Translations under genes and position numbers: made by a program
Notes under the pieces: model-generated
Database searches by the model: none
Told to the model about the DNA's origin: nothing
What the model saw: the letters and a program-made list of their open reading frames with translations, nothing else
In this document: positions 26,904 to 35,512 of the stretch, in pieces
How positions within the stretch are numbered: position 1 is the first letter of the stretch
Layout of the letters: each line of letters opens with the position of its first letter
NCBI GenBank assembly: GCA_964553615.1
Contig: CAZKMA010000021.1
Span: forward strand, 4,402-68,401
Direction of reading: 5' to 3'
Source: an uncultured Spirochaetales bacterium
GTDB taxonomy: Bacteria; Spirochaetota; Spirochaetia; DSM-27196; DATKUC01
DNA: 64,000 nt

Positions 26904-27731
26904 TTATCTGACGAGTGCAGACAGGAGTGCCGCTATCACGGCGCCTGTCGCGCAACTCGCAATATTCACCACGTCGTTGTTCACGCCTGATAGCCCGCGG
27001 ATACGTATGTTCTTTGTGCCATCTCCACGGGTTTTTCGTTCGGTTATTCTGCCGGTGGATTCATCCCGGTACGTCGCCTGGATGGTGGCACCGATCACGC
27101 TGTCCACGATTGAGCCCGCGAAACCACTTCCTGTAACAATTCCCACAATCAAGAGGTCGCGGGGCCGGAACGACCAGCTGTTCGTCGCGAGGAGTCCTAT
27201 TCCGTAGATGAGGCCGATGAACAGGGCGCCGAGGAGCGCCGCGACTGTTCCGAATGCCGTTACTCCACCGGACATTCCGGCGGGAACGGCGCGGCCGGAG
27301 ATTATGGACACGGGACGTTGCCGGGAAAGCATTCCAATCTCCGTGGCCCAGGTGTCGGCGTTCGCCTCGGCAAACGATGCGGCAAGTGCGGCGAGCCATA
27401 TGGTGTTGCCGCTCAGCGCGTAGATTGTTGCGGCAAGGAACCCGATGCCGCCGTTCGCCATGACCTGCAGACTGTCTCTGCGATCGCCTTTTTCAATCAT
27501 GACCGCAGACGATTCCTTCCGTGCCCTGCCAATCCTGCTGAGAATCGAGGAAGAGAGGAAGAACGCGCCGAGGACAGTCCACGCCGACCAGCCGGAGAAT
27601 ATGAGAATCCCGGCGCTTACGAGGAATCCGACTGCGGCTCCTCCCGCGGTAACCGCCTTTCTCCAGTATGCGCCTGCGGCCAGCAGAAGATTTACCGCGA
27701 CGATCGTTACAAATGAAACTGGCGATAGCAT
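26904..27731 (-). CDS. DUF92/TMEM19 family membrane protein (VTE6 phytyl-phosphate kinase family)
   Basis: Polytopic Gly/Ala-rich protein with the DUF92-like blocks ...FAEANADTWATEIG... and ...GVNNDVVN.... Its start overlaps the upstream kinase gene's stop by 1 nt. Confidence 0.65.
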   Translation of the reverse strand: MLSPVSFVTIVAVNLLLAAGAYWRKAVTAGGAAVGFLVSAGILIFSGWSAWTVLGAFFLSSSILSRIGRARKESSAVMIEKGDRRDSLQVMANGGIGFLAATIYALSGNTIWLAALAASFAEANADTWATEIGMLSRQRPVSIISGRAVPAGMSGGVTAFGTVAALLGALFIGLIYGIGLLATNSWSFRPRDLLIVGIVTGSGFAGSIVDSVIGATIQATYRDESTGRITERKTRGDGTKNIRIRGLSGVNNDVVNIASCATGAVIAALLSALVR

Positions 27732-28414
27732 CAGACCCTCGCCAGGTTGAACAGCACGGTGGTCAGAATGGGCACGGTCAGATTGTCCAGGCCGAATGGT
27801 GTCAAAACCTCAATAGCGGTGGCAGTTGCCGCCACTTTGACCGATGTCAGAATGATTGAGTCAATTCCGCCGGCGAAGGAAAAGACCGAGAGTACTCCGA
27901 TTGATACGAGGAGGGATGCCAGAAACATGGCAACCGTTCCGCGAACAGATTTGAAGGTCCCAAAACCGAAGACTGTGAATCTCAGCCTGGAGCTTCTCCT
28001 GCCGATCAGCGCCGCCATTCCGTCTCCCCATCCCATGATCAGGACTCCGAGAGCGCCGGTATAGACAGGGAATACTCCTCCGAAAGTCAGGAATACCAGC
28101 ACGAGAAGGGAAACCGGATAGTAGATTGTGCCGAGACTTGCACGTGCCGCCTCGGAATCCAGTGCGGAAAACAGAGGCCGTTTCAGCGCGAACAGATTGA
28201 ACGCAATGAAGAACAGCGGGCCAATCGCCGCCACCCACGGTTTGTGGTGGAAGAGCATTGCAATGATCCACCAGTGTGCAACTCCAATGTGAACGATCTT
28301 CCGTCCCGTGTCGCCATCTATCTGATTTCGGTGGATGAGAATTTGAACGAAGCCGAGAAGAGAAAATATGAAAACAAATGAAACGAGGATGCCAAGAATG
28401 TCACGCATACCCAC
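27731..28414 (-). CDS. CTP-dependent polyprenol (phytol/dolichol) kinase family membrane protein (VTE5-like)
   Basis: Polytopic. RKIVHIG and the C-terminal MGWGDGMAALIGRR motif are typical of the phytol kinase/dolichol kinase/CDS-related family. Confidence 0.7.
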   Translation of the reverse strand: MGMRDILGILVSFVFIFSLLGFVQILIHRNQIDGDTGRKIVHIGVAHWWIIAMLFHHKPWVAAIGPLFFIAFNLFALKRPLFSALDSEAARASLGTIYYPVSLLVLVFLTFGGVFPVYTGALGVLIMGWGDGMAALIGRRSSRLRFTVFGFGTFKSVRGTVAMFLASLLVSIGVLSVFSFAGGIDSIILTSVKVAATATAIEVLTPFGLDNLTVPILTTVLFNLARV

Positions 28415-28470: not shown

Positions 28471-29217
28471 ATGGCAGTTCAAGATAAACAAAAACGGCTG
28501 GCTGTGCTCATCGATGCAGATAACACCCAACCATCAATCATTGAGGCATTGCTCGAAGAGATCGCCAAATACGGCGTATCGAGTGTGCGCAGGATCTACG
28601 GAGACTGGACGAGTCCCAATCTCAAGGGATGGAAAGACGTTCTTCTCGAGTATGCAATCCAGCCGATTCAACAATTTGCATATACCCGTGGCAAAAACGC
28701 CACCGACAGCGCGATGATCATCGACGCGATGGACTTGCTGTACACCGACAAATTTGACGGTTTCTGCATCGTCTCGAGTGACAGTGATTTCACGCGTCTG
28801 TCGGCGCGCGTACGCGAGTCGGGACTCACCGTCTACGGGTTCGGCGAACAAAAGACTCCGAAGGCGTTTGTCGGTGCATGCGACAAGTTCATCTATACCG
28901 AAATTCTTCGAAAGCGGGATGAAAAAGAGCCCGAAGTTCGCAAGGCACCAAGCTCGAAAGAGCTGAAGAGCGACACGCGGCTGGTCACGCTGCTACGAAA
29001 TGCGGTTGAGGACTCTGCCGACGAGAACGGATGGGCGCACCTGGGTACGGTCGGTCAGAATCTTGCAAACCGCGCTCCTGAGTTCGATCCCCGGAACTAC
29101 GGCTACAAGAAGCTTGGAGATCTCATTCGAGCGACCGGCCTGTTCGAAATTGATGAGCGATCCGCAGAAAACTCCCCGGCAAAAAATCTGTATGTGCGGG
29201 ATATTCGACGGCGGTAA
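28471..29217 (+). CDS. NYN (LabA-like) nuclease domain + OST-HTH/LOTUS domain protein
   Basis: N-terminal LAVLIDADNT...GKNATDSAMIIDAMDLLY...FCIVSSDSDFTRLSARVRESG (NYN/DUF88). C-terminal WAHLGTVGQNLANRAPEFDPRNYGYKKLGDLI (OST-HTH). Confidence 0.85.
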   Translation: MAVQDKQKRLAVLIDADNTQPSIIEALLEEIAKYGVSSVRRIYGDWTSPNLKGWKDVLLEYAIQPIQQFAYTRGKNATDSAMIIDAMDLLYTDKFDGFCIVSSDSDFTRLSARVRESGLTVYGFGEQKTPKAFVGACDKFIYTEILRKRDEKEPEVRKAPSSKELKSDTRLVTLLRNAVEDSADENGWAHLGTVGQNLANRAPEFDPRNYGYKKLGDLIRATGLFEIDERSAENSPAKNLYVRDIRRR

Positions 29218-29220
29218 CGA

Positions 29221-29649
29221 ATGGCATTCATGAAAAGACGCAGTAGCCGATCGGATGAGCGGGCGCGTTTGATCGAGCGCGGATTTCGACTGCGATCGCT
29301 CGACATTCTTGCAATTGCCCTGGCGCTCGGTGTGGTTGTGCTCTTTTCCGTAAACGCGTACACCGGATCAGGAAACAGCAGCGAGGTAATTGTCCAGGCG
29401 GATGGGAAGGACTTTCTCTATCCGCTCAATCAGGATACCGAGTTCAAGGTAACCGGTCCCATCGGAAAAACTACCATTCAGATCAAGAACCATTCCGTCC
29501 GCGTTGTTGATTCGCCCTGTCGCGACAAGATCTGCATTGCCGCGGGGTGGCTCTCTCACACCGGTCAGTGGACTGCCTGTCTTCCCAATCGTGTCTTTGT
29601 CAGAGTTGAGGGTGGAAAGCCGGCCACGGTGGATGCTCAGACCTTCTGA
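29221..29649 (+). CDS. NusG domain II-containing protein (DUF1312-like), N-terminal TM anchor
   Basis: A TM helix (ILAIALALGVVVLF) is followed by ...IVQADGKDFLYPLNQD...IKNHSVRVVDSPCRDKICI..GWLSHTGQWTACLPNRVFVRVEG, the C-x3-C...C pattern of NusG_II proteins found next to flavinylation genes. Confidence 0.7.
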   Translation: MAFMKRRSSRSDERARLIERGFRLRSLDILAIALALGVVVLFSVNAYTGSGNSSEVIVQADGKDFLYPLNQDTEFKVTGPIGKTTIQIKNHSVRVVDSPCRDKICIAAGWLSHTGQWTACLPNRVFVRVEGGKPATVDAQTF

Positions 29650-29785
29650 TCCGACCGCCCTTTGACGTCTGGGCACACGCAGTTGCGGACCTGTCTTTCA
29701 GCACTATCATCCTTTTTGTAAGCAATCTCAATTGCATTTCACCTGGTTACCTCCATGCCGCAGTCAACGTCCATCTCGAAATGGT

Positions 29786-29814
29786 TTGACATATGCCGAG
29801 AAACAGGATAGGAT
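29786..29814 (+). promoter_or_regulatory. sigma70-like promoter of the FMN_bind gene (TTGACA-17 nt-TAGGAT)
   Basis: Consensus -35 TTGACA at 29786-29791, a 17-nt spacer and TAGGAT at 29809-29814, about 45 nt upstream of the ATG. Confidence 0.55.
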
Positions 29815-29859
29815 AAAATTATACCCAATTCACATCATAGCTTACCACGGGAGGAGAAT

Positions 29860-30693
29860 ATGAAGCGGCTAATGGTAGTCATGCTGTTGCTCGCAGTCGC
29901 ATTTGCGGCGTTTGCGAACGGCGAGAAGGAGAAGGGCGCTATCGGCTCTTCTGGGGCCCTGAAGGACGGAAGCTATTTTGCGACCTACACGACCGCAGAC
30001 AATCACGGCTGGCAGCCGTTCATGCGGATCGAGGTTGCCGGAGGTAAAATCGCTTCGGTTGCATACAACTATGTGAGTCCGGACGGAAAGATGTTCAAGA
30101 CTCAGGACAATCAGTACAACACAACCATGCTGAAGTTTGCCGGAACGAATCCTGAGAAGGCATACCCGGAGCTTGAAAAGCGGATAATATCCGCCCAGTC
30201 CGGCAAGATAGACGCGGTAACCGGGGCTACGCACTCGAGTGAAACCGCCATGGAGCTTGCTTCCGATCTTGTTTCTCGCGCCGGGACAGGAAATACCGCC
30301 GATCTGGTTCTGCCTATGACGGGAATGTATACGGCGGAAGACAAGCCGGACGAGCACGGCGGGTGGATCGGTCATCTTGAGGTGACATTCGGCGATCAGG
30401 GGAAGGTCACGAAGGTGGTCTACGACGAGGTCAAGAAAGAGAATAACAAGATTGTCGCCTACAAAAGCAAGGACATGGAATACGAGAAGAACTTCAAGGC
30501 CAAGAGCGGCATCAGTCAGGGAGAAGCTTACACCAGGCTGAGTGCCGAGCTGACGGCGACCGCCAAACTGAATACCGTTGATGCGGTCACGGGTGCCACA
30601 GGAACGAGTGAGCGGTTTAACGCGCTTGTGGAAAATATCAAGATGCAGCGGACAGGTGTTGCGCCTTCGGCAATAAAGGCGATGCTCAAGTAG
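29860..30693 (+). CDS. secreted protein with two FMN_bind domains (PplA-like flavinylation substrate)
   Basis: Type-I signal peptide (LLAVAFAAFANG). There are two repeats, each containing the ApbE target motif D-A-V-T-G-A-T (DAVTGATHSS at 30211-30240 and DAVTGATGTS at 30580-30609). Confidence 0.85.
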   Translation: MKRLMVVMLLLAVAFAAFANGEKEKGAIGSSGALKDGSYFATYTTADNHGWQPFMRIEVAGGKIASVAYNYVSPDGKMFKTQDNQYNTTMLKFAGTNPEKAYPELEKRIISAQSGKIDAVTGATHSSETAMELASDLVSRAGTGNTADLVLPMTGMYTAEDKPDEHGGWIGHLEVTFGDQGKVTKVVYDEVKKENNKIVAYKSKDMEYEKNFKAKSGISQGEAYTRLSAELTATAKLNTVDAVTGATGTSERFNALVENIKMQRTGVAPSAIKAMLK

Positions 30694-30719
30694 CCTGGAA
30701 TTGCTCCGCAGAGATCGCC

Positions 30720-30769
30720 ATGGCCGTTGTCCTCCGATGTCCTGCACCGGAGGCAACGGCCATTCTTTC
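30720..30769. terminator. long hairpin between convergent FMN_bind and apbE genes (probable bidirectional terminator)
   Basis: atggccgttg(t)cctcc ... ggagg caacggccat forms a ~15-bp stem with one bulge, followed by tctttc on the + strand. Confidence 0.55.
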
Positions 30770-30788
30770 GGCGTGTGTTCTCAGACTC

Positions 30789-31925
30789 TCAGTTTGTTAC
30801 GTTGTCCGCCTTTTCTATCTGATCAATGGTGGAAACGGGGGGCGTATAATTCGGACCGGCTGCTGCGGTGGAAATATCCTCGATGTGGTAATCGGAGTTG
30901 GTGAGGGTGAACTTCCCATCCAGGCCGGGAGTGTAGTAGACCTTCTTGTTGTCGGTCACAAATATGGCATCGACACCCTTCATGTCACGGATCAGTTTAT
31001 AGCCATTTTCAAGCCCAAGCACGAATACCGATGTCGAAAGTCCGTCACAGATCATGGATACGTTGCTGTAGATCGTGGTGCTGGTCAGATGGTCCTGCAC
31101 CGGATAACCTGTCTTCGGGTTGATAATGTGGTGATACATGACTCCGTTCCTGATGAAGTAACGTTCGTACGGTCCCGAGGTAACGACCGACATATTTGTT
31201 GCGTTAACGATACCGAGGTAGCCACCGCGCGGGGCAAACGGTGTCTGGATTCCGATGCGCCAGGGCTTCCCGTCTGGTTTCGCGCCCATTACCAGGATGT
31301 TGCCGCCGAAATCGAGGATGGCGTGTTTGACCCCTTCCTTGATGAGAATCTGTTCAGCCTGGTCTGCAGCGTATCCCTTGGCGATGCCACCCAGATCGAT
31401 TCCCATCCCTTTCTTCTCCAGATACACGGAGTGATCGGCTTCATTCAATTTTATCCAGTGCCAGTTCACCAGAGGAAGCAGTTTCTTGATCTCTTCCGGG
31501 GATGGAAGTTGTTCATGATCGGTGCCGATGCCCCATAGTTTTACGATGGGTCCGACCGAGATATCGAAGGCACCGTCAGTCAACTTGCTGAATTCGAGTG
31601 CCGTCTTTATTACGTCGAAGACGTCTGGGGTTACCTGTACCGGTTTGATGCCGGCATTCCTGTTTATTTCGACAACTTCGCTGCTGTTTCCTTCCGTTGT
31701 CATGCGGTTATGAATGTCGCGCACGCGGGCAAACGCTTTTTCGAGAACCGAGGGGTCTACCCGATCGTACACGGTCATGGTAATGGTGGTGCCAAGAAGC
31801 AGTTCCGTGCGGGAAAATGGCTTCGTGGATGTCCTGCTGCCACATCCAGTGACCAATACCAGAGTGAGGGTAGCCACGCCCAGCAGCGCAGCCGTTGTCC
31901 AGCGAAACGGTGTTACTCTGTTCAT
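30789..31925 (-). CDS. apbE: FAD:protein FMN transferase (ApbE/Ftp), lipoprotein
   Basis: Lipobox LVLVTGC. ApbE blocks are present (TMTVYD...RDIHNRMT...GAFDISVGPIVKLWG..., GIAKGYAADQ, VVTSGPYERYF). It also has a ~40-aa C-terminal extension. Confidence 0.9.
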   Translation of the reverse strand: MNRVTPFRWTTAALLGVATLTLVLVTGCGSRTSTKPFSRTELLLGTTITMTVYDRVDPSVLEKAFARVRDIHNRMTTEGNSSEVVEINRNAGIKPVQVTPDVFDVIKTALEFSKLTDGAFDISVGPIVKLWGIGTDHEQLPSPEEIKKLLPLVNWHWIKLNEADHSVYLEKKGMGIDLGGIAKGYAADQAEQILIKEGVKHAILDFGGNILVMGAKPDGKPWRIGIQTPFAPRGGYLGIVNATNMSVVTSGPYERYFIRNGVMYHHIINPKTGYPVQDHLTSTTIYSNVSMICDGLSTSVFVLGLENGYKLIRDMKGVDAIFVTDNKKVYYTPGLDGKFTLTNSDYHIEDISTAAAGPNYTPPVSTIDQIEKADNVTN

Positions 31926-31938
31926 GATAGAACTATTA

Positions 31939-32029
31939 GTACCATATTTATCGAATTGAGGTCAATGTATTACTCTTTTAGCAAGTAAAAAGTGATAACT
32001 GACTTGCGTTAATTCGATAAACATGGTAC
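31939..32029. promoter_or_regulatory. 19-nt inverted repeat pair (GTACCATATTTATCGAATT / AATTCGATAAACATGGTAC) in the apbE-ndh divergent promoter region
   Basis: The arms at 31939-31957 and 32011-32029 match at 18/19 positions as reverse complements and are separated by 53 nt. Each arm overlaps the spacer and -10 of a predicted outward-facing promoter. Confidence 0.6.
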
Positions 32030-32091
32030 GATAATTTTATACCGAAACATCACCATCTTTTTGGGAAACCAAAATCAGCGGAGGCCGCAGT

Positions 32092-34269
32092 ATGGCAGAG
32101 AAGACACGTATTGCTGTGTTAGGAGCCGGTTACGCCGGCATAGCTGCTACGAAACTGCTCTACAAGAGGTACAAGAAGAACCCCAACGTAGAGATCAGTA
32201 TTATCGACCGGAACCCGTACCACACCCTCATGACGGAGCTTCACGAAATTGCCGGGTCCAGAACCGAGCCTGGGGCAGTTCAGGTGAGCCTGGCGAAGAT
32301 CTTCGGCGGGAAACGCATGAAGGTCGTCATTGACGAAATCGATACGATTGAGTTCGAACAGAACAAACTTGTGTCGAAATTAACTGAATACCCCTACGAC
32401 TATCTCATCATCGGCGCCGGCGCTGAGCCGGAATTCTTTGGAACGCCCGGTGTCCAGGAGCATTCCTTTACCTGCTGGTCCCTGGAGGATGCAATTCGCA
32501 TTCGCGTCCACGTAGAAGACATGTTTCGCGAGGCAGCCAAGGAGCCGAACGAGTCGAGGCGCAGAGAACTGCTGACATTTGTACTGGCTGGGGCGGGGTT
32601 TACCGGCGTTGAGCTTGCCGGAGAACTTCTCGAGCGGCGCGATGTGTTGTGCGAGCAATATCATATCAACCCCAAAGAGGTCCGGGTCGTCATTGTTGAA
32701 ATGAAAGACACGATCCTGCCAATTCTGCCGGAATGGCCACAGAAGAAGGCTGAAAAGTACCTCCAGAAACGTGGCGCAGAAATCATGCTCAATGCTCCGG
32801 TAGCGGAGGCTTCAGAGGGTTCTGTACGGGTTGCCGGCGATCACGACCTCGAGATCCGTACCGAAACCTTTATCTGGACCTGCGGAGTTCACGGGTCCGA
32901 GTTCACTTCGAAGATTGAGCTGACCAAGGGGAACTGTTCGCCTGACCACGGAGCGGTTGCTTCAATCGAGGGTATTCACGGCATGGCCGGATGCCATTTC
33001 GACGACGACGAACGGTATGTCGTCGGAGAGCGCGGTCGGATCAGTGTAAACAAATACTGTCAGTCCGTGGACTTCGACAACGTCTATCTCGTCGGGGACG
33101 TCATGTGGTACGTTATTGGCGACAAGGTCGTGCCGCAGATAGTCGAGACGGCGTTGCAGTCAGGAGAAGTCACTGCCAGGAATATCATCACGGATATTGA
33201 GGGTGGTGAGAAAGAGGGCTTCAATCCGAAGTACCACGGATTCATGGTTTCAATCGGCGGGCGGTATGGTGTAGCTCACGGCATGGGGATGTCGTTTTCC
33301 GGGTTCATGGCCATGTCTGCAAAGCACCTCATTAACCTGCATTATCTGCTCGGACTTGCGGGAATTAACGCCGTGTGGGAATACATGCAGCACGAGTTTT
33401 TCACAATGAAGGACCGGCGCAGTTTTATCGGTGGACACCTGTCATGGAAGATTCCGTCCTATTGGGCCTTTCCGCTTCGATTGTGGCTCGGCGGAAAATG
33501 GCTTTACGAGGGAATCAAGAAGGTCACCGAAGGCTGGCTCAATCCCGGCAAGGAGGGACTCGCGCACGTATGGTCAGGAGCCATTCGAATGCCTGGTGTG
33601 AGTTTTGCTGCCGAGGCAACGTCCGCAGCAACGGCTGCGACGGGGGCAGCGGCGGGACACGTTGCGCAGGCGGCAACGAGTGCTGCGGCAAATGCGACCT
33701 CGGCAGCGACGGCGGTTGCACAAGCTGCACCGGCAGCCGCTCAGGCGGCGGCTGACGCAACATCGGCAGCAACTGGGGCAGTAGCCGGCGCGGTAGCCGG
33801 TGCGGCACACACTGCCGCAGCTGCGGCCTCCTCCTACGGGCAGGCACTGAGCGGCCCATGGGGCGTGTACACCTGGTTTGCCCACAATGTCCTCAGCGCT
33901 TCGCCGCTGCTGGCGTTTCTTCTGCAGGCCGTCGTTGTCATAGTTGAGATCGGCCTTGGACTTGCGTTCGTTGGTGGAGCCTTCACCTGGCTTGCCGCTG
34001 TCGTATCCATTCTCATTGGCGTAATGTTCATCGCCTCAGGATGGGGAAGTCCGGAGCTGCTCTGGTACATGTTCGGCGCTCTCGTCATGATGGGTGGTGC
34101 CGGGCGCGCTCTCGGCCTCGATCACTGGATCATGCCGTGGCTGAAGGGCTGGTGGAACGGTACCCGGTTTGCCAAGCGCACCTACCTCTACACCGATGAA
34201 CCGCACGATCGATGGAACGGAAAGCGAGCAAGTCGACCGCAATCCAACATTTCTGTGTCATCACGATAG
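32092..34269 (+). CDS. ndh: type II NADH dehydrogenase (NDH-2) fused to a C-terminal DoxX/DoxD-like membrane domain
   Basis: Two Rossmann motifs (IAVLGAGYAGIA and FVLAGAGFTGVELAGEL) and the NDH-2 C-terminal blocks up to ~aa 430. These are followed by WLGGKWLYEGIKKVTEGW, an Ala-rich linker and then ...VEIGLGLAFVGGAFTWLAAV...MMGGAGRALGLDHW, which is DoxX-like. Confidence 0.8.
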   Translation: MAEKTRIAVLGAGYAGIAATKLLYKRYKKNPNVEISIIDRNPYHTLMTELHEIAGSRTEPGAVQVSLAKIFGGKRMKVVIDEIDTIEFEQNKLVSKLTEYPYDYLIIGAGAEPEFFGTPGVQEHSFTCWSLEDAIRIRVHVEDMFREAAKEPNESRRRELLTFVLAGAGFTGVELAGELLERRDVLCEQYHINPKEVRVVIVEMKDTILPILPEWPQKKAEKYLQKRGAEIMLNAPVAEASEGSVRVAGDHDLEIRTETFIWTCGVHGSEFTSKIELTKGNCSPDHGAVASIEGIHGMAGCHFDDDERYVVGERGRISVNKYCQSVDFDNVYLVGDVMWYVIGDKVVPQIVETALQSGEVTARNIITDIEGGEKEGFNPKYHGFMVSIGGRYGVAHGMGMSFSGFMAMSAKHLINLHYLLGLAGINAVWEYMQHEFFTMKDRRSFIGGHLSWKIPSYWAFPLRLWLGGKWLYEGIKKVTEGWLNPGKEGLAHVWSGAIRMPGVSFAAEATSAATAATGAAAGHVAQAATSAAANATSAATAVAQAAPAAAQAAADATSAATGAVAGAVAGAAHTAAAAASSYGQALSGPWGVYTWFAHNVLSASPLLAFLLQAVVVIVEIGLGLAFVGGAFTWLAAVVSILIGVMFIASGWGSPELLWYMFGALVMMGGAGRALGLDHWIMPWLKGWWNGTRFAKRTYLYTDEPHDRWNGKRASRPQSNISVSSR
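33607..33834 (+). repeat. Ala/Thr/Ser low-complexity coding tract inside the ndh fusion gene
   Basis: Translates to AAEATSAATAATGAAAGHVAQAATSAAANATSAATAVAQAAPAAAQAAADATSAATGAVAGAVAGAAHTAAAAASS. The nucleotides are GCN-rich with reiterated gcagc/gcggc units. Confidence 0.8.
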
Positions 34270-34320
34270 TCTGCATTGTAGAACCCGGAAAATCTTAGTA
34301 CATTACATAACGGGAATCAT

Positions 34321-34346
34321 GCGGCCGGAATCCTCCGGCCGCTTTT
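34321..34346 (+). terminator. Rho-independent terminator after ndh
   Basis: Perfect 9-bp stem gcggccgga / tccggccgc with loop atcc, followed by TTTT. It lies only 38 nt upstream of the next ATG. Confidence 0.8.
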
Positions 34347-34384
34347 AGCAAATACGTGGCACACTGCTGCGGACGGGATGGAGA

Positions 34385-35512
34385 ATGACGCACTTCTGGG
34401 ATGACTTCCCGGCTATTCAACATGATCTGGAACGTGTCCATGATGTCATTCTGGACAATGTTCGCAGCCGGAACGTGACTATCACCCGCGCATTGACAAA
34501 TCTTGCGAATCGGAACGGAAAGTTGCTCCGGCCCGGGTTCGTGCTGTTGAGCGCTCGCCTGAAGGGCGACCTCATGAACGGAAATGACGGCAACGGGACG
34601 ATGGGCAATTTCGTGGAAAATGGCGATTTCGTCGGAAACGGCGGTTTCGTTGGAAACGGTCATGGATTTTCGGCCGAAGCAGCGGAATCCGGTCGTGGTG
34701 CCCGCACAGTTGCCGAAATACGGCCACTTCCGGAGAAGATCTACAAAATTGCCGCGTCCGTCGAGATGCTGCACATGGCGACCCTCATTCACGACGACGT
34801 GATAGACGAGGCCAACAACCGCCGCGGTCAACCGACGGTTCACGTCGAATACGGCAAGAAAGAGGCCATTCTGATGGGTGACTACCTCTTCAGCCGGACC
34901 TATCGGCTTCTTGCCGACAATACCAGCATCGAGAACGCAAAACGGCTTGCTCTGGTCGTGAGCCAGATTGTAGCCGGCGAAATCGATCAGTCTATTCCCG
35001 GCGAGCAGATCAGCTACGGACCGCGAACCTATATTCGCCGAGTCGTCGGAAAGACTGCCACCCTCATAGCCGATAGCTTCTATCTCGGAGCTTCGGAAGC
35101 CGATATGGGCCTTGCCCGGAGTACCTATCTCAGGCGGATTGGATACAGCATCGGGATGGCGTTCCAGATAATCGACGATATTCTCGATTTCACCGGTTCG
35201 GCCGATGTGCTCGGGAAGGCGCCGGGTTCCGACCTCCGTCAGGGAGTTGTGACGCTGCCACTCATCTACGCAATGCGCGCAAACGGCAAGGACGTTATCT
35301 GGAAAAGACTCTACACCCCGGAGAGGCTTACGAGTTCCGACTTGACCGCAATTATCGAGGCAATAGACCGGGAGGGCGGGTTCGCCATGGCCCGGGACAA
35401 AGCGGAGCAGTATACCCGCCGTGCTCTACGCCAGATCGCGTTTCTCCCACGCGGCGAGAACAAAGACGTACTGGCAGCGGTGGCCAGAAAGCTTCTCGAT
35501 CGTACCTACTGA
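34385..35512 (+). CDS. long-chain polyprenyl diphosphate synthase (hepta/octaprenyl type) with Gly/Asn/Phe repeat insertion
   Basis: FARM LIHDDVIDEANNRRG and SARM FQIIDDILDF are both present, as is KLLRPGFVLLSARL. A ~50-aa insertion precedes the FARM helix. Confidence 0.9.
   Translation: MTHFWDDFPAIQHDLERVHDVILDNVRSRNVTITRALTNLANRNGKLLRPGFVLLSARLKGDLMNGNDGNGTMGNFVENGDFVGNGGFVGNGHGFSAEAAESGRGARTVAEIRPLPEKIYKIAASVEMLHMATLIHDDVIDEANNRRGQPTVHVEYGKKEAILMGDYLFSRTYRLLADNTSIENAKRLALVVSQIVAGEIDQSIPGEQISYGPRTYIRRVVGKTATLIADSFYLGASEADMGLARSTYLRRIGYSIGMAFQIIDDILDFTGSADVLGKAPGSDLRQGVVTLPLIYAMRANGKDVIWKRLYTPERLTSSDLTAIIEAIDREGGFAMARDKAEQYTRRALRQIAFLPRGENKDVLAAVARKLLDRTY
34604..34675 (+). repeat. in-frame 18-nt tandem repeat (3 good copies + 1 degenerate) inside the polyprenyl synthase gene
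   Basis: ggcaatttcgtggaaaat / ggcgatttcgtcggaaac / ggcggtttcgttggaaac / ggtcatggattttcggcc encode GNFVEN GDFVGN GGFVGN GHGFSA. Confidence 0.85.

Follow-up and report, generated by a model that had tools for sequence, protein, structure and literature searches.

A spirochaetal FLEET-type locus with a soluble PplA homologue, predicted to operate in a diderm envelope

Flavin-based extracellular electron transfer (FLEET), the Listeria-type form of extracellular electron transfer (EET), is encoded by the genes dmkA, dmkB, eetA, eetB, ndh2, pplA and fmnB (Light et al. 2018, as cited in PMC8238504 and PMC9973259). It is usually presented as a Gram-positive way to export electrons without an outer membrane. 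The canonical Lactiplantibacillus pentosus locus encodes a polyprenyl_synt protein, an Hpre_diP_synt_I protein with five transmembrane (TM) helices, a NusG_II protein with one TM helix, an Ndh, a lipoprotein with two FMN_bind domains and an ApbE lipoprotein (PMC8238504); by FLEET gene order these are dmkB, eetB, eetA, ndh2, pplA and fmnB. Its Ndh is a protein of 637 amino acids (aa) with Pyr_redox_2 and DoxD domains and three TM helices (PMC8238504). The locus of Enterococcus sp. AZ194, found through its annotated PplA, runs dmkB-eetB-eetA-ndh2 / pplA-fmnB-dmkA. Here we analyse a five-gene locus of this kind from an uncultured Spirochaetales bacterium, carried on a stretch of 64,000 nt of contig CAZKMA010000021.1 (the window; all coordinates are window positions).

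The locus encodes, in order, an EetA homologue (NusG_II protein, 142 aa; 29221–29649, plus strand; Pfam NusG_II, E = 1.7e-25), a PplA-like protein with two FMN_bind stretches (277 aa; 29860–30693, plus strand; Pfam FMN_bind, E = 1.6e-12), an FmnB/ApbE-type FAD:protein FMN transferase that is a lipoprotein (378 aa; 30789–31925, minus strand; Pfam ApbE, E = 8e-95), Ndh2 (725 aa; 32092–34269, plus strand; Pfam Pyr_redox_2, E = 8e-29) and a DmkB-type polyprenyl diphosphate synthase (375 aa; 34385–35512, plus strand; Pfam polyprenyl_synt, E = 7e-55). A preliminary description, made from the letters of the DNA alone, had listed these five genes with these domains and read them as a FLEET-like flavinylation and electron-transfer locus. 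The open reading frames (ORFs) and Pfam matches agree with that list, and the FLEET assignment proves stronger than was claimed, all five proteins being homologous to their canonical Enterococcus counterparts. The gene for the ApbE protein lies on the opposite strand from ndh2 and diverges from it, so the block is not a single co-directional operon; the same five-gene block was found on three independent metagenome contigs. We think it probable, from sequence, that the locus is a spirochaetal orthologue of the Listeria/Enterococcus/Lactiplantibacillus FLEET/EET system and operates in a diderm envelope. This orthology is supported by the homology of every part, by extracytosolic targeting signals, by intact motifs and by conserved synteny.

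In a homologue search, the best matches to Ndh2 were all Spirochaetia proteins, with Alkalispirochaeta and Salinispira among their sources and 80% identity for the top match. These matches place the host in the Spirochaetota, and it is therefore diderm, as the preliminary description had supposed from the surrounding genes. Both GC content and third-position GC content (GC3) of the five genes are unremarkable, and carry no compositional mark of a recent transfer of pplA.

In canonical loci EetA has a NusG_II domain and a single TM helix (Méheust 2021, PMC8238504, Supplementary file 1). The window protein is likewise a single-pass membrane protein with a NusG_II domain, consisting by hydropathy and Pfam of an N-terminal TM anchor (residues 26–44) and a periplasmic NusG_II domain, and it is homologous to EetA of Enterococcus sp. 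AZ194 (BLASTP E = 6e-12, 21% identity over ~117 aa); we therefore identify it as EetA. EetA, EetB and DmkA had all been taken to be absent from the locus, which is correct for the last two within the window and mistaken for EetA. Three cysteines of the NusG_II domain (C100, C105 and C120, in the arrangement CxxxxC ... CLP) are invariant in 40 sequences from spirochaetes and Enterococcus, hinting that they bind a metal or form a redox-active disulfide. The genes eetA and eetB are co-localized in 3,328 genomes, and EetB is the ECF-S subunit of a transporter exporting FAD for FmnB (PMC9973259). In L. plantarum, flavin-dependent EET requires Ndh2 and EetA, and EET dependent on DHNA (1,4-dihydroxy-2-naphthoate) requires Ndh2 and PplA (PMC9888254). 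Most spirochaete loci keep EetA without EetB, which is mildly informative about the carrier that takes electrons from quinol to PplA.

The 277-aa protein aligns with Enterococcus PplA over both FMN domains (33% identity, E = 2e-20) and matches the NCBIfam PplA model NF041941 over residues 28–258 (E = 2e-40). RnfG models reach only E ~1e-3, over ~27–29 residues. A flavinylation motif has been defined as [S/T]GA[S/T] (PMC8238504), and such a site is present in each of the two FMN_bind domains of this extracytosolic protein. The motif reads DAVTGAT both times, and its final threonine is the predicted FMN-phosphoester site: Thr124 in domain 1 (codon 30229–30231, plus strand) and Thr247 in domain 2 (codon 30598–30600, plus strand), precisely the codons named in the preliminary description. 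Correct, too, was its assignment of a type-I signal peptide without a lipobox. The signal peptide is of the form AFA|NG and the 277 aa contain no cysteine; the protein therefore cannot be a lipoprotein, and the lipid anchor that holds PplA on the outer face of the cytoplasmic membrane is lacking. Spirochaete homologues of PplA are mostly lipoproteins, such as a 54%-identical Salinispira protein with the lipobox LALAAC, and a minority have a type-I signal peptide. A further homologue, of 40% identity, lies within an ndh2/pplA-apbE core.

FmnB is 42% identical to Enterococcus FmnB over its full length (E = 2e-94) and has the lipobox LVTGC, which together with the ApbE match bears out the earlier call of an ApbE lipoprotein. 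By sequence it is an extracytosolic ApbE-family FMN transferase, this activity being predicted. In a comparison with the Protein Data Bank (PDB), its best solved relative is FmnB of Listeria monocytogenes (7esa; 5.6e-93, 315 bits), ahead of Ftp of Treponema pallidum (4ifu; 2e-57, 198 bits). Ftp (TP0796) is a periplasmic ApbE-family flavin-trafficking lipoprotein (PMC4436053), and the window FmnB resembles it in being a homologous spirochaetal ApbE-family lipoprotein of the periplasm. It differs from Ftp in being markedly nearer to Listeria FmnB and in having Ndh2 and PplA as neighbours, and it would not serve an Rnf-type system.

The catalytic part of Ndh2 (32092–33408, plus strand; Pyr_redox_2) matches the structure of an NDH-2 (PDB 4nwz, 2e-62), by which it is predicted to be a bona fide type-II NADH dehydrogenase. 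Over residues 4–478 the protein is 38% identical to Enterococcus Ndh2 (E = 4e-113). A multiple alignment places within the catalytic part a spirochaete-specific insert of ~35 aa that is absent from Enterococcus Ndh2 (window 32920–33040, residues ~278–316); its motif EGIHGMxGC (residues 293–301, including H296 and C301) is invariant.

The remainder of Ndh2 is a C-terminal membrane domain (33409–34269, plus strand), recognized by its homology to the Enterococcus Ndh2 tail, by hydropathy and by an AlphaFold2 model. The two tails are 29% identical over residues 607–676 (E = 1e-6), and W470, E473, Q612, G629, T632, F646, S649, W658 and GLD675–677 are invariant in 17 spirochaete sequences and Enterococcus. 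Hydropathy indicates strong TM helices at 606–624 and 630–648, with weaker helices beside them at ~453–475 (amphipathic or TM) and ~657–680. Between the first and second tail helices lies a low-complexity loop of ~100 aa, 45% alanine (window 33575–33875, residues ~495–595), which varies among Ndh2 homologues from near zero to more than 150 residues. The AlphaFold2 model of the tail is all-helical (mean predicted confidence, pLDDT, 74.5) and has no fold match in the PDB. An NDH-2 (K03885-type) with a C-terminal TM domain thus has ApbE and FMN_bind genes as immediate neighbours.

The preliminary description had called this tail DoxX-like and had counted it among the departures from the canonical system. 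Its membrane helices are there, and the likeness appears among homologues: of 18 aligned Ndh2 proteins, three match DoxX (PF07681; best 2.5e-5) and three match DoxD (PF04173; best 3.9e-5), and published or precomputed annotations give DoxD or DoxX for the Ndh2 proteins of L. pentosus, Sediminispirochaeta and Salinispira. The window tail itself has no significant DoxX match in Pfam at a lenient threshold (E = 0.13–0.95). Nor is the tail a departure, given that the canonical tail is itself annotated DoxD and aligns with the one in the window. A phmmer search with the tail against 1.84 billion representatives returned 166 clusters, nearly all of them the C-terminal end of proteins of ~600–740 aa, or fragments; at single-sequence sensitivity it gave no tie to the wider DoxX family. 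By these comparisons the tail is predicted to be a membrane domain of a narrow family specific to Ndh2 and remotely DoxX/DoxD-like, the resemblance coming through homologues only, and corresponds to the canonical FLEET Ndh2 tail.

DmkB adjoins ndh2 and is 31% identical to Enterococcus DmkB over its full length (E = 6e-58). Its best NCBIfam models are those of long-chain synthases (heptaprenyl component II, 3e-66; solanesyl, 2e-56), all of them under their cut-offs, in keeping with the long-chain polyprenyl synthase of the preliminary description. Ahead of its first DDxxD motif, positions −5 and −4 are occupied by A and T, small residues of the kind typical there of long-chain synthases. Near its N terminus the protein has a Gly/Asn/Phe-rich insert of ~45 aa that is missing from Enterococcus DmkB, part of which is encoded by an 18-bp tandem repeat of 3.1 copies (window 34604–34659).

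We compared the surroundings of ndh2 across related spirochaetes. A species scan, with one genome per species and EGIHGM[AKS]G as one of two peptide patterns used, found Ndh2 relatives in 173 species genomes; the best 80 are all from Spirochaetota. In the related loci, ORFs were called and then labelled through phmmer searches that used the FLEET proteins of Enterococcus and those of the window as queries, and neighbours were counted within 6 kb of Ndh2 at the 42 loci with full flanks. Ndh2 is followed by DmkB in 62 of the 63 loci with enough downstream sequence. Among the 42, DmkB is present in 41, EetA in 22, FmnB in 19, PplA in 11, DmkA in 10 and EetB in 2. The synteny comparison that the preliminary description had proposed thus yields a nearly constant Ndh2–DmkB pair accompanied by variable EetA, FmnB, PplA, DmkA and EetB. 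The block is also not confined to Rnf/Nqr operons: no major ORF of the window contains RnfB, NqrF or other Rnf/Nqr subunit domains, and the recurrent neighbours sampled at related loci, which are unrelated housekeeping or signalling genes, include no Rnf/Nqr gene.

What lies between eetA and fmnB varies from locus to locus: pplA fills this slot in the window and in about a dozen other loci, and a MenA-type DHNA prenyltransferase (DmkA) does so in the three closest relatives (L006–L008; 80–87% Ndh2 identity). In one of these, L007, the slot also contains a NitT/TauT-type ABC transporter ATPase and permease; L016 has a full ABC transporter there, with an NMT1/THI5-like binding protein, and L023 a lycopene cyclase and a carotenoid-synthesis protein. 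DmkA is found inside the locus in L006–L008 and beside it in others, and EetB in 6 of the 80 related loci, so both of the cluster genes missing from this window do occur within the clade. At two loci (L049, 3104–4390; L050, 2608–3894), EetB (Hpre_diP_synt_I, residues 41–181) makes up the N-terminal portion of a membrane protein of 428 aa whose gene directly follows eetA. The second half of that protein is hydrophobic and unannotated, making it an extended or fused EetB variant.

Set against the FLEET loci of Listeria, Enterococcus and Lactiplantibacillus, the spirochaetal locus has five of seven core genes as clear homologues, encoding a tailed Ndh2, EetA, a PplA with two domains, a lipoprotein FmnB and DmkB, and shares the divergence of ndh2 from flavinylation genes, with dmkB adjacent. 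It differs from them in its diderm host, where PplA is destined for the periplasm; in a PplA that is soluble (signal peptidase I type, no cysteine) and not lipid-anchored; in having neither eetB nor dmkA in cis within 64 kb; in the spirochaete-specific insert and long Ala-rich loop of Ndh2; and in the repeat-derived insert of DmkB.

Méheust et al. 2021 gave EET an operational definition, a flavinylation cluster that includes an Ndh bearing a TM helix, and counted 553 such clusters in 547 genomes (PMC8238504). The window locus falls under that definition. The same census already lists a cluster of Sediminispirochaeta bajacaliforniensis (NZ_KB899413.1_100-104) in its 'extracellular electron transfer' category (PMC8238504). 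As in the window, a lipoprotein ApbE there diverges from an Ndh2 of ~700 aa (Pyr_redox_2 and DoxD), which is followed by polyprenyl_synt, and the two Ndh2 proteins belong to the same clade. The S. bajacaliforniensis cluster differs in having EetB (Hpre_diP_synt_I) and no PplA within five genes, whereas the window locus has PplA and EetA and no EetB. Our literature search found no paper that discusses FLEET in spirochaetes, the Méheust census table apart. With a spirochaete locus in that published census, the novelty that the preliminary description saw in a non-canonical locus was overstated. Both the FLEET system and a spirochaete member of it are known, and what is added here is a minor variant whose PplA is soluble, which lacks eetB and dmkA in cis and which carries inserts specific to its clade.

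Other flavinylated periplasmic systems of Gram-negative bacteria comprise NapH-like, MsrQ-like, PepSY-like, DsbD-like and NQR/RNF-like types (PMC8238504). The spirochaetal locus resembles these in placing an ApbE-flavinylated FMN_bind protein, as predicted here, on the periplasmic side, where it would receive electrons from a cytoplasmic or membrane pool. It differs in its membrane component, a tailed NDH-2 plus quinone, and none of the five defining transmembrane apparatuses was found.

For the identity of the quinone, the direction of electron flow, the flavinylation of PplA, the roles of EetA and the Ndh2 tail, and the acceptor, we infer the following scheme. Cytoplasmic NADH would be oxidized by the membrane-bound type-II Ndh2, which would reduce a quinone of the demethylmenaquinone type, with DmkB providing its long prenyl tail; DmkA would be encoded elsewhere, or naphthoquinone scavenged. 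On the periplasmic side electrons would pass out of the quinone pool, possibly with participation of the Ndh2 tail, of single-pass EetA or of both. The next carrier would be soluble, periplasmic, di-FMN PplA, to which the lipoprotein FmnB would attach FMN covalently at Thr124 and Thr247. Because PplA is soluble and an outer membrane is present, the immediate destination of the electrons would be the periplasm, where reduced PplA would hand them to an acceptor not encoded nearby, such as free flavins, chelated Fe(III) or a flavinylated reductase. Overall, the chain would regenerate NAD+ in a fermentative anaerobe. The preliminary description had likewise predicted a periplasmic chain from NADH to a flavoprotein, and that prediction is still a reasonable one. 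We also advance, tentatively and as a good deal more doubtful than the orthology itself, the idea that in cytochrome-poor fermentative spirochaetes this amounts to a flavin-only periplasmic chain. Diffusing di-FMN PplA would play the part taken in Shewanella by small soluble multihaem cytochromes, linking an inner-membrane NDH-2/quinone system to periplasmic or outer-membrane acceptors, and EetA or the Ndh2 tail would be the link from quinol to PplA and not an accessory of an FAD exporter.

Several observations weigh against reading the locus as a working FLEET system. A clean deletion of eetA in Listeria gave no EET phenotype (PMC9973259). In the 64-kb window, phmmer and tblastn searches with Enterococcus and spirochaete queries found no EetB (Hpre_diP_synt_I/ECF-S-like), and queries from the same sources found no DmkA (MenA-like DHNA prenyltransferase); men genes, a UbiA-family gene, an ECF-T and a candidate terminal reductase were likewise not found there, nor was any recurrent terminal reductase among the neighbour clusters sampled near the 80 related loci. 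The flavinylation module stands beside Ndh2 in only about half of the related loci, so the coupling is not obligatory. With 138.8 bits, the PplA-like protein lies far under the strict NF041941 cut-off of 325 bits, and by this score we regard it as a PplA homologue rather than a curated equivalog. Finally, the outer membrane separates soluble periplasmic PplA from any truly extracellular acceptor.

The loose coupling invites a reading in which two unrelated modules are merely neighbours. Ndh2–DmkB would then be a respiratory NADH:quinone module for intracellular redox balance, with an oxidase, fumarate reductase or DHNA-dependent NAD+ regeneration, as described for Listeria Ndh2, as its outlet, and EetA, PplA and FmnB would have a separate periplasmic flavoprotein function. 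Ndh2–DmkB is indeed the sole near-universal pair; at about half of the related loci FmnB, EetA and PplA are all missing within 6 kb, with DmkB alone in 9 of 42; the eetA–fmnB slot is filled elsewhere by DmkA, ABC transporter or carotenoid genes; and, according to the title of a preprint, Listeria depends on intracellular redox homeostasis that runs through Ndh2 and requires DHNA (10.1101/2023.01.13.524026). Yet the window Ndh2 carries the EET-defining tail, whose narrow family is almost confined to such proteins, the divergent placing of fmnB and ndh2 is seen again among spirochaetes and around the 40%-identity PplA, and FmnB is of the FLEET and not the Ftp type. On this balance we consider separate modules unlikely.

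Two other explanations accept more of the same parts. If the wiring were assimilatory, its periplasmic task would be to reduce nutrients destined for uptake, be they Fe(III) chelates or others, and not to dispose of electrons from energy metabolism. Flavinylation genes are often co-localized with iron transporters, implicating iron reduction and assimilation, according to Méheust et al. (PMC8238504), and NitT/TauT-type ABC transporter genes sit in the eetA–fmnB slot of L007 and L016. We found no iron-transport gene adjoining the locus in the window, however, the binding protein of the L016 transporter is NMT1/THI5-like and not siderophore-like, and canonical FLEET sustains high-flux NAD+ regeneration, all of which makes an assimilatory role improbable in our view. 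It is hardly credible that the FMN_bind protein is no carrier at all and instead binds or stores flavin or is an envelope antigen, with ApbE acting mainly on another substrate such as RnfG. That idea draws on homologues named 'major membrane immunogen (membrane-anchored lipoprotein)' in source records, on several in-locus spirochaete PplA-like proteins that match the narrow motif pattern once or never, and on close PplA homologues encoded away from any Ndh2 (L005, L087 and L088). Here, by contrast, both motifs are perfect DAVTGAT inside recognizable FMN_bind domains, the gene is placed between eetA and a FLEET-type fmnB, and no Rnf/Nqr genes were found in the window. FLEET orthology stays our preferred, probable reading of the locus.

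The divergent fmnB/ndh2 intergenic region (31926–32091) contains a 19-nt inverted repeat with arms GTACCATATTTATCGAATT (31939–31957) and AATTCGATAAACATGGTAC (32011–32029), 95% complementary and 53 nt apart. All three closest relatives preserve the repeat cores TTATCGAAT and ATTCGATAA unchanged, and the repeat was not found in more distant related loci. The region has no Rfam match; the repeat is a candidate operator pair or leader hairpin or structure. A scan for promoters and terminators gave chance-level counts. A search of the intergenic regions for riboswitches and other known RNAs gave a sole match, a spurious sub-threshold isrG that falls inside the Ala-rich coding repeat of Ndh2 on the opposite strand.

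Directly upstream of the locus, a gene for a protein with an NYN (RNase-like) domain and an OST-HTH/LOTUS domain (28471–29217, plus strand) has its stop 4 bp before the start codon of eetA. The same adjacency is seen in 15 of the 42 related loci, and its recurrence suggests that the NYN gene and eetA are co-transcribed. Farther upstream, on the minus strand, the genes for a DUF92 membrane protein (26904–27731) and a 227-aa protein with five TM helices (27731–28414) overlap in their stop and start codons. The two are kept upstream of the FLEET locus in 13 of 42 (DUF92) and 12 of 42 (227-aa protein) related loci. Homologues of the 227-aa protein are named 'phytol kinase' or 'diacylglycerol/polyprenol kinase family' in source records; it was considered as a divergent EetB and rejected on these names and on the absence of EetB similarity. 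DUF92 is the family of the plant VTE6 phytyl-phosphate kinase. The pair may provide a salvage route from prenol to prenyl diphosphate beside a prenyl-dependent quinone system, adjacency being what suggests a functional link. The remaining genes of the window are housekeeping, signalling and transport genes.

A conserved and widespread diderm version of FLEET, with its Ndh2 type in 173 species genomes, would mean that the same parts that export electrons in Gram-positive bacteria feed the periplasm here. This suggests that many free-living spirochaetes regarded as 'strictly fermentative' would have an outlet for NADH that is linked to quinone. The clade could also help to resolve which carrier connects the quinone pool to PplA, with EetA kept, EetB mostly not in cis and PplA occurring in both lipidated and soluble forms. 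Cultured relatives, namely Alkalispirochaeta alkalica, Salinispira pacifica and Sediminispirochaeta bajacaliforniensis, make the system testable.

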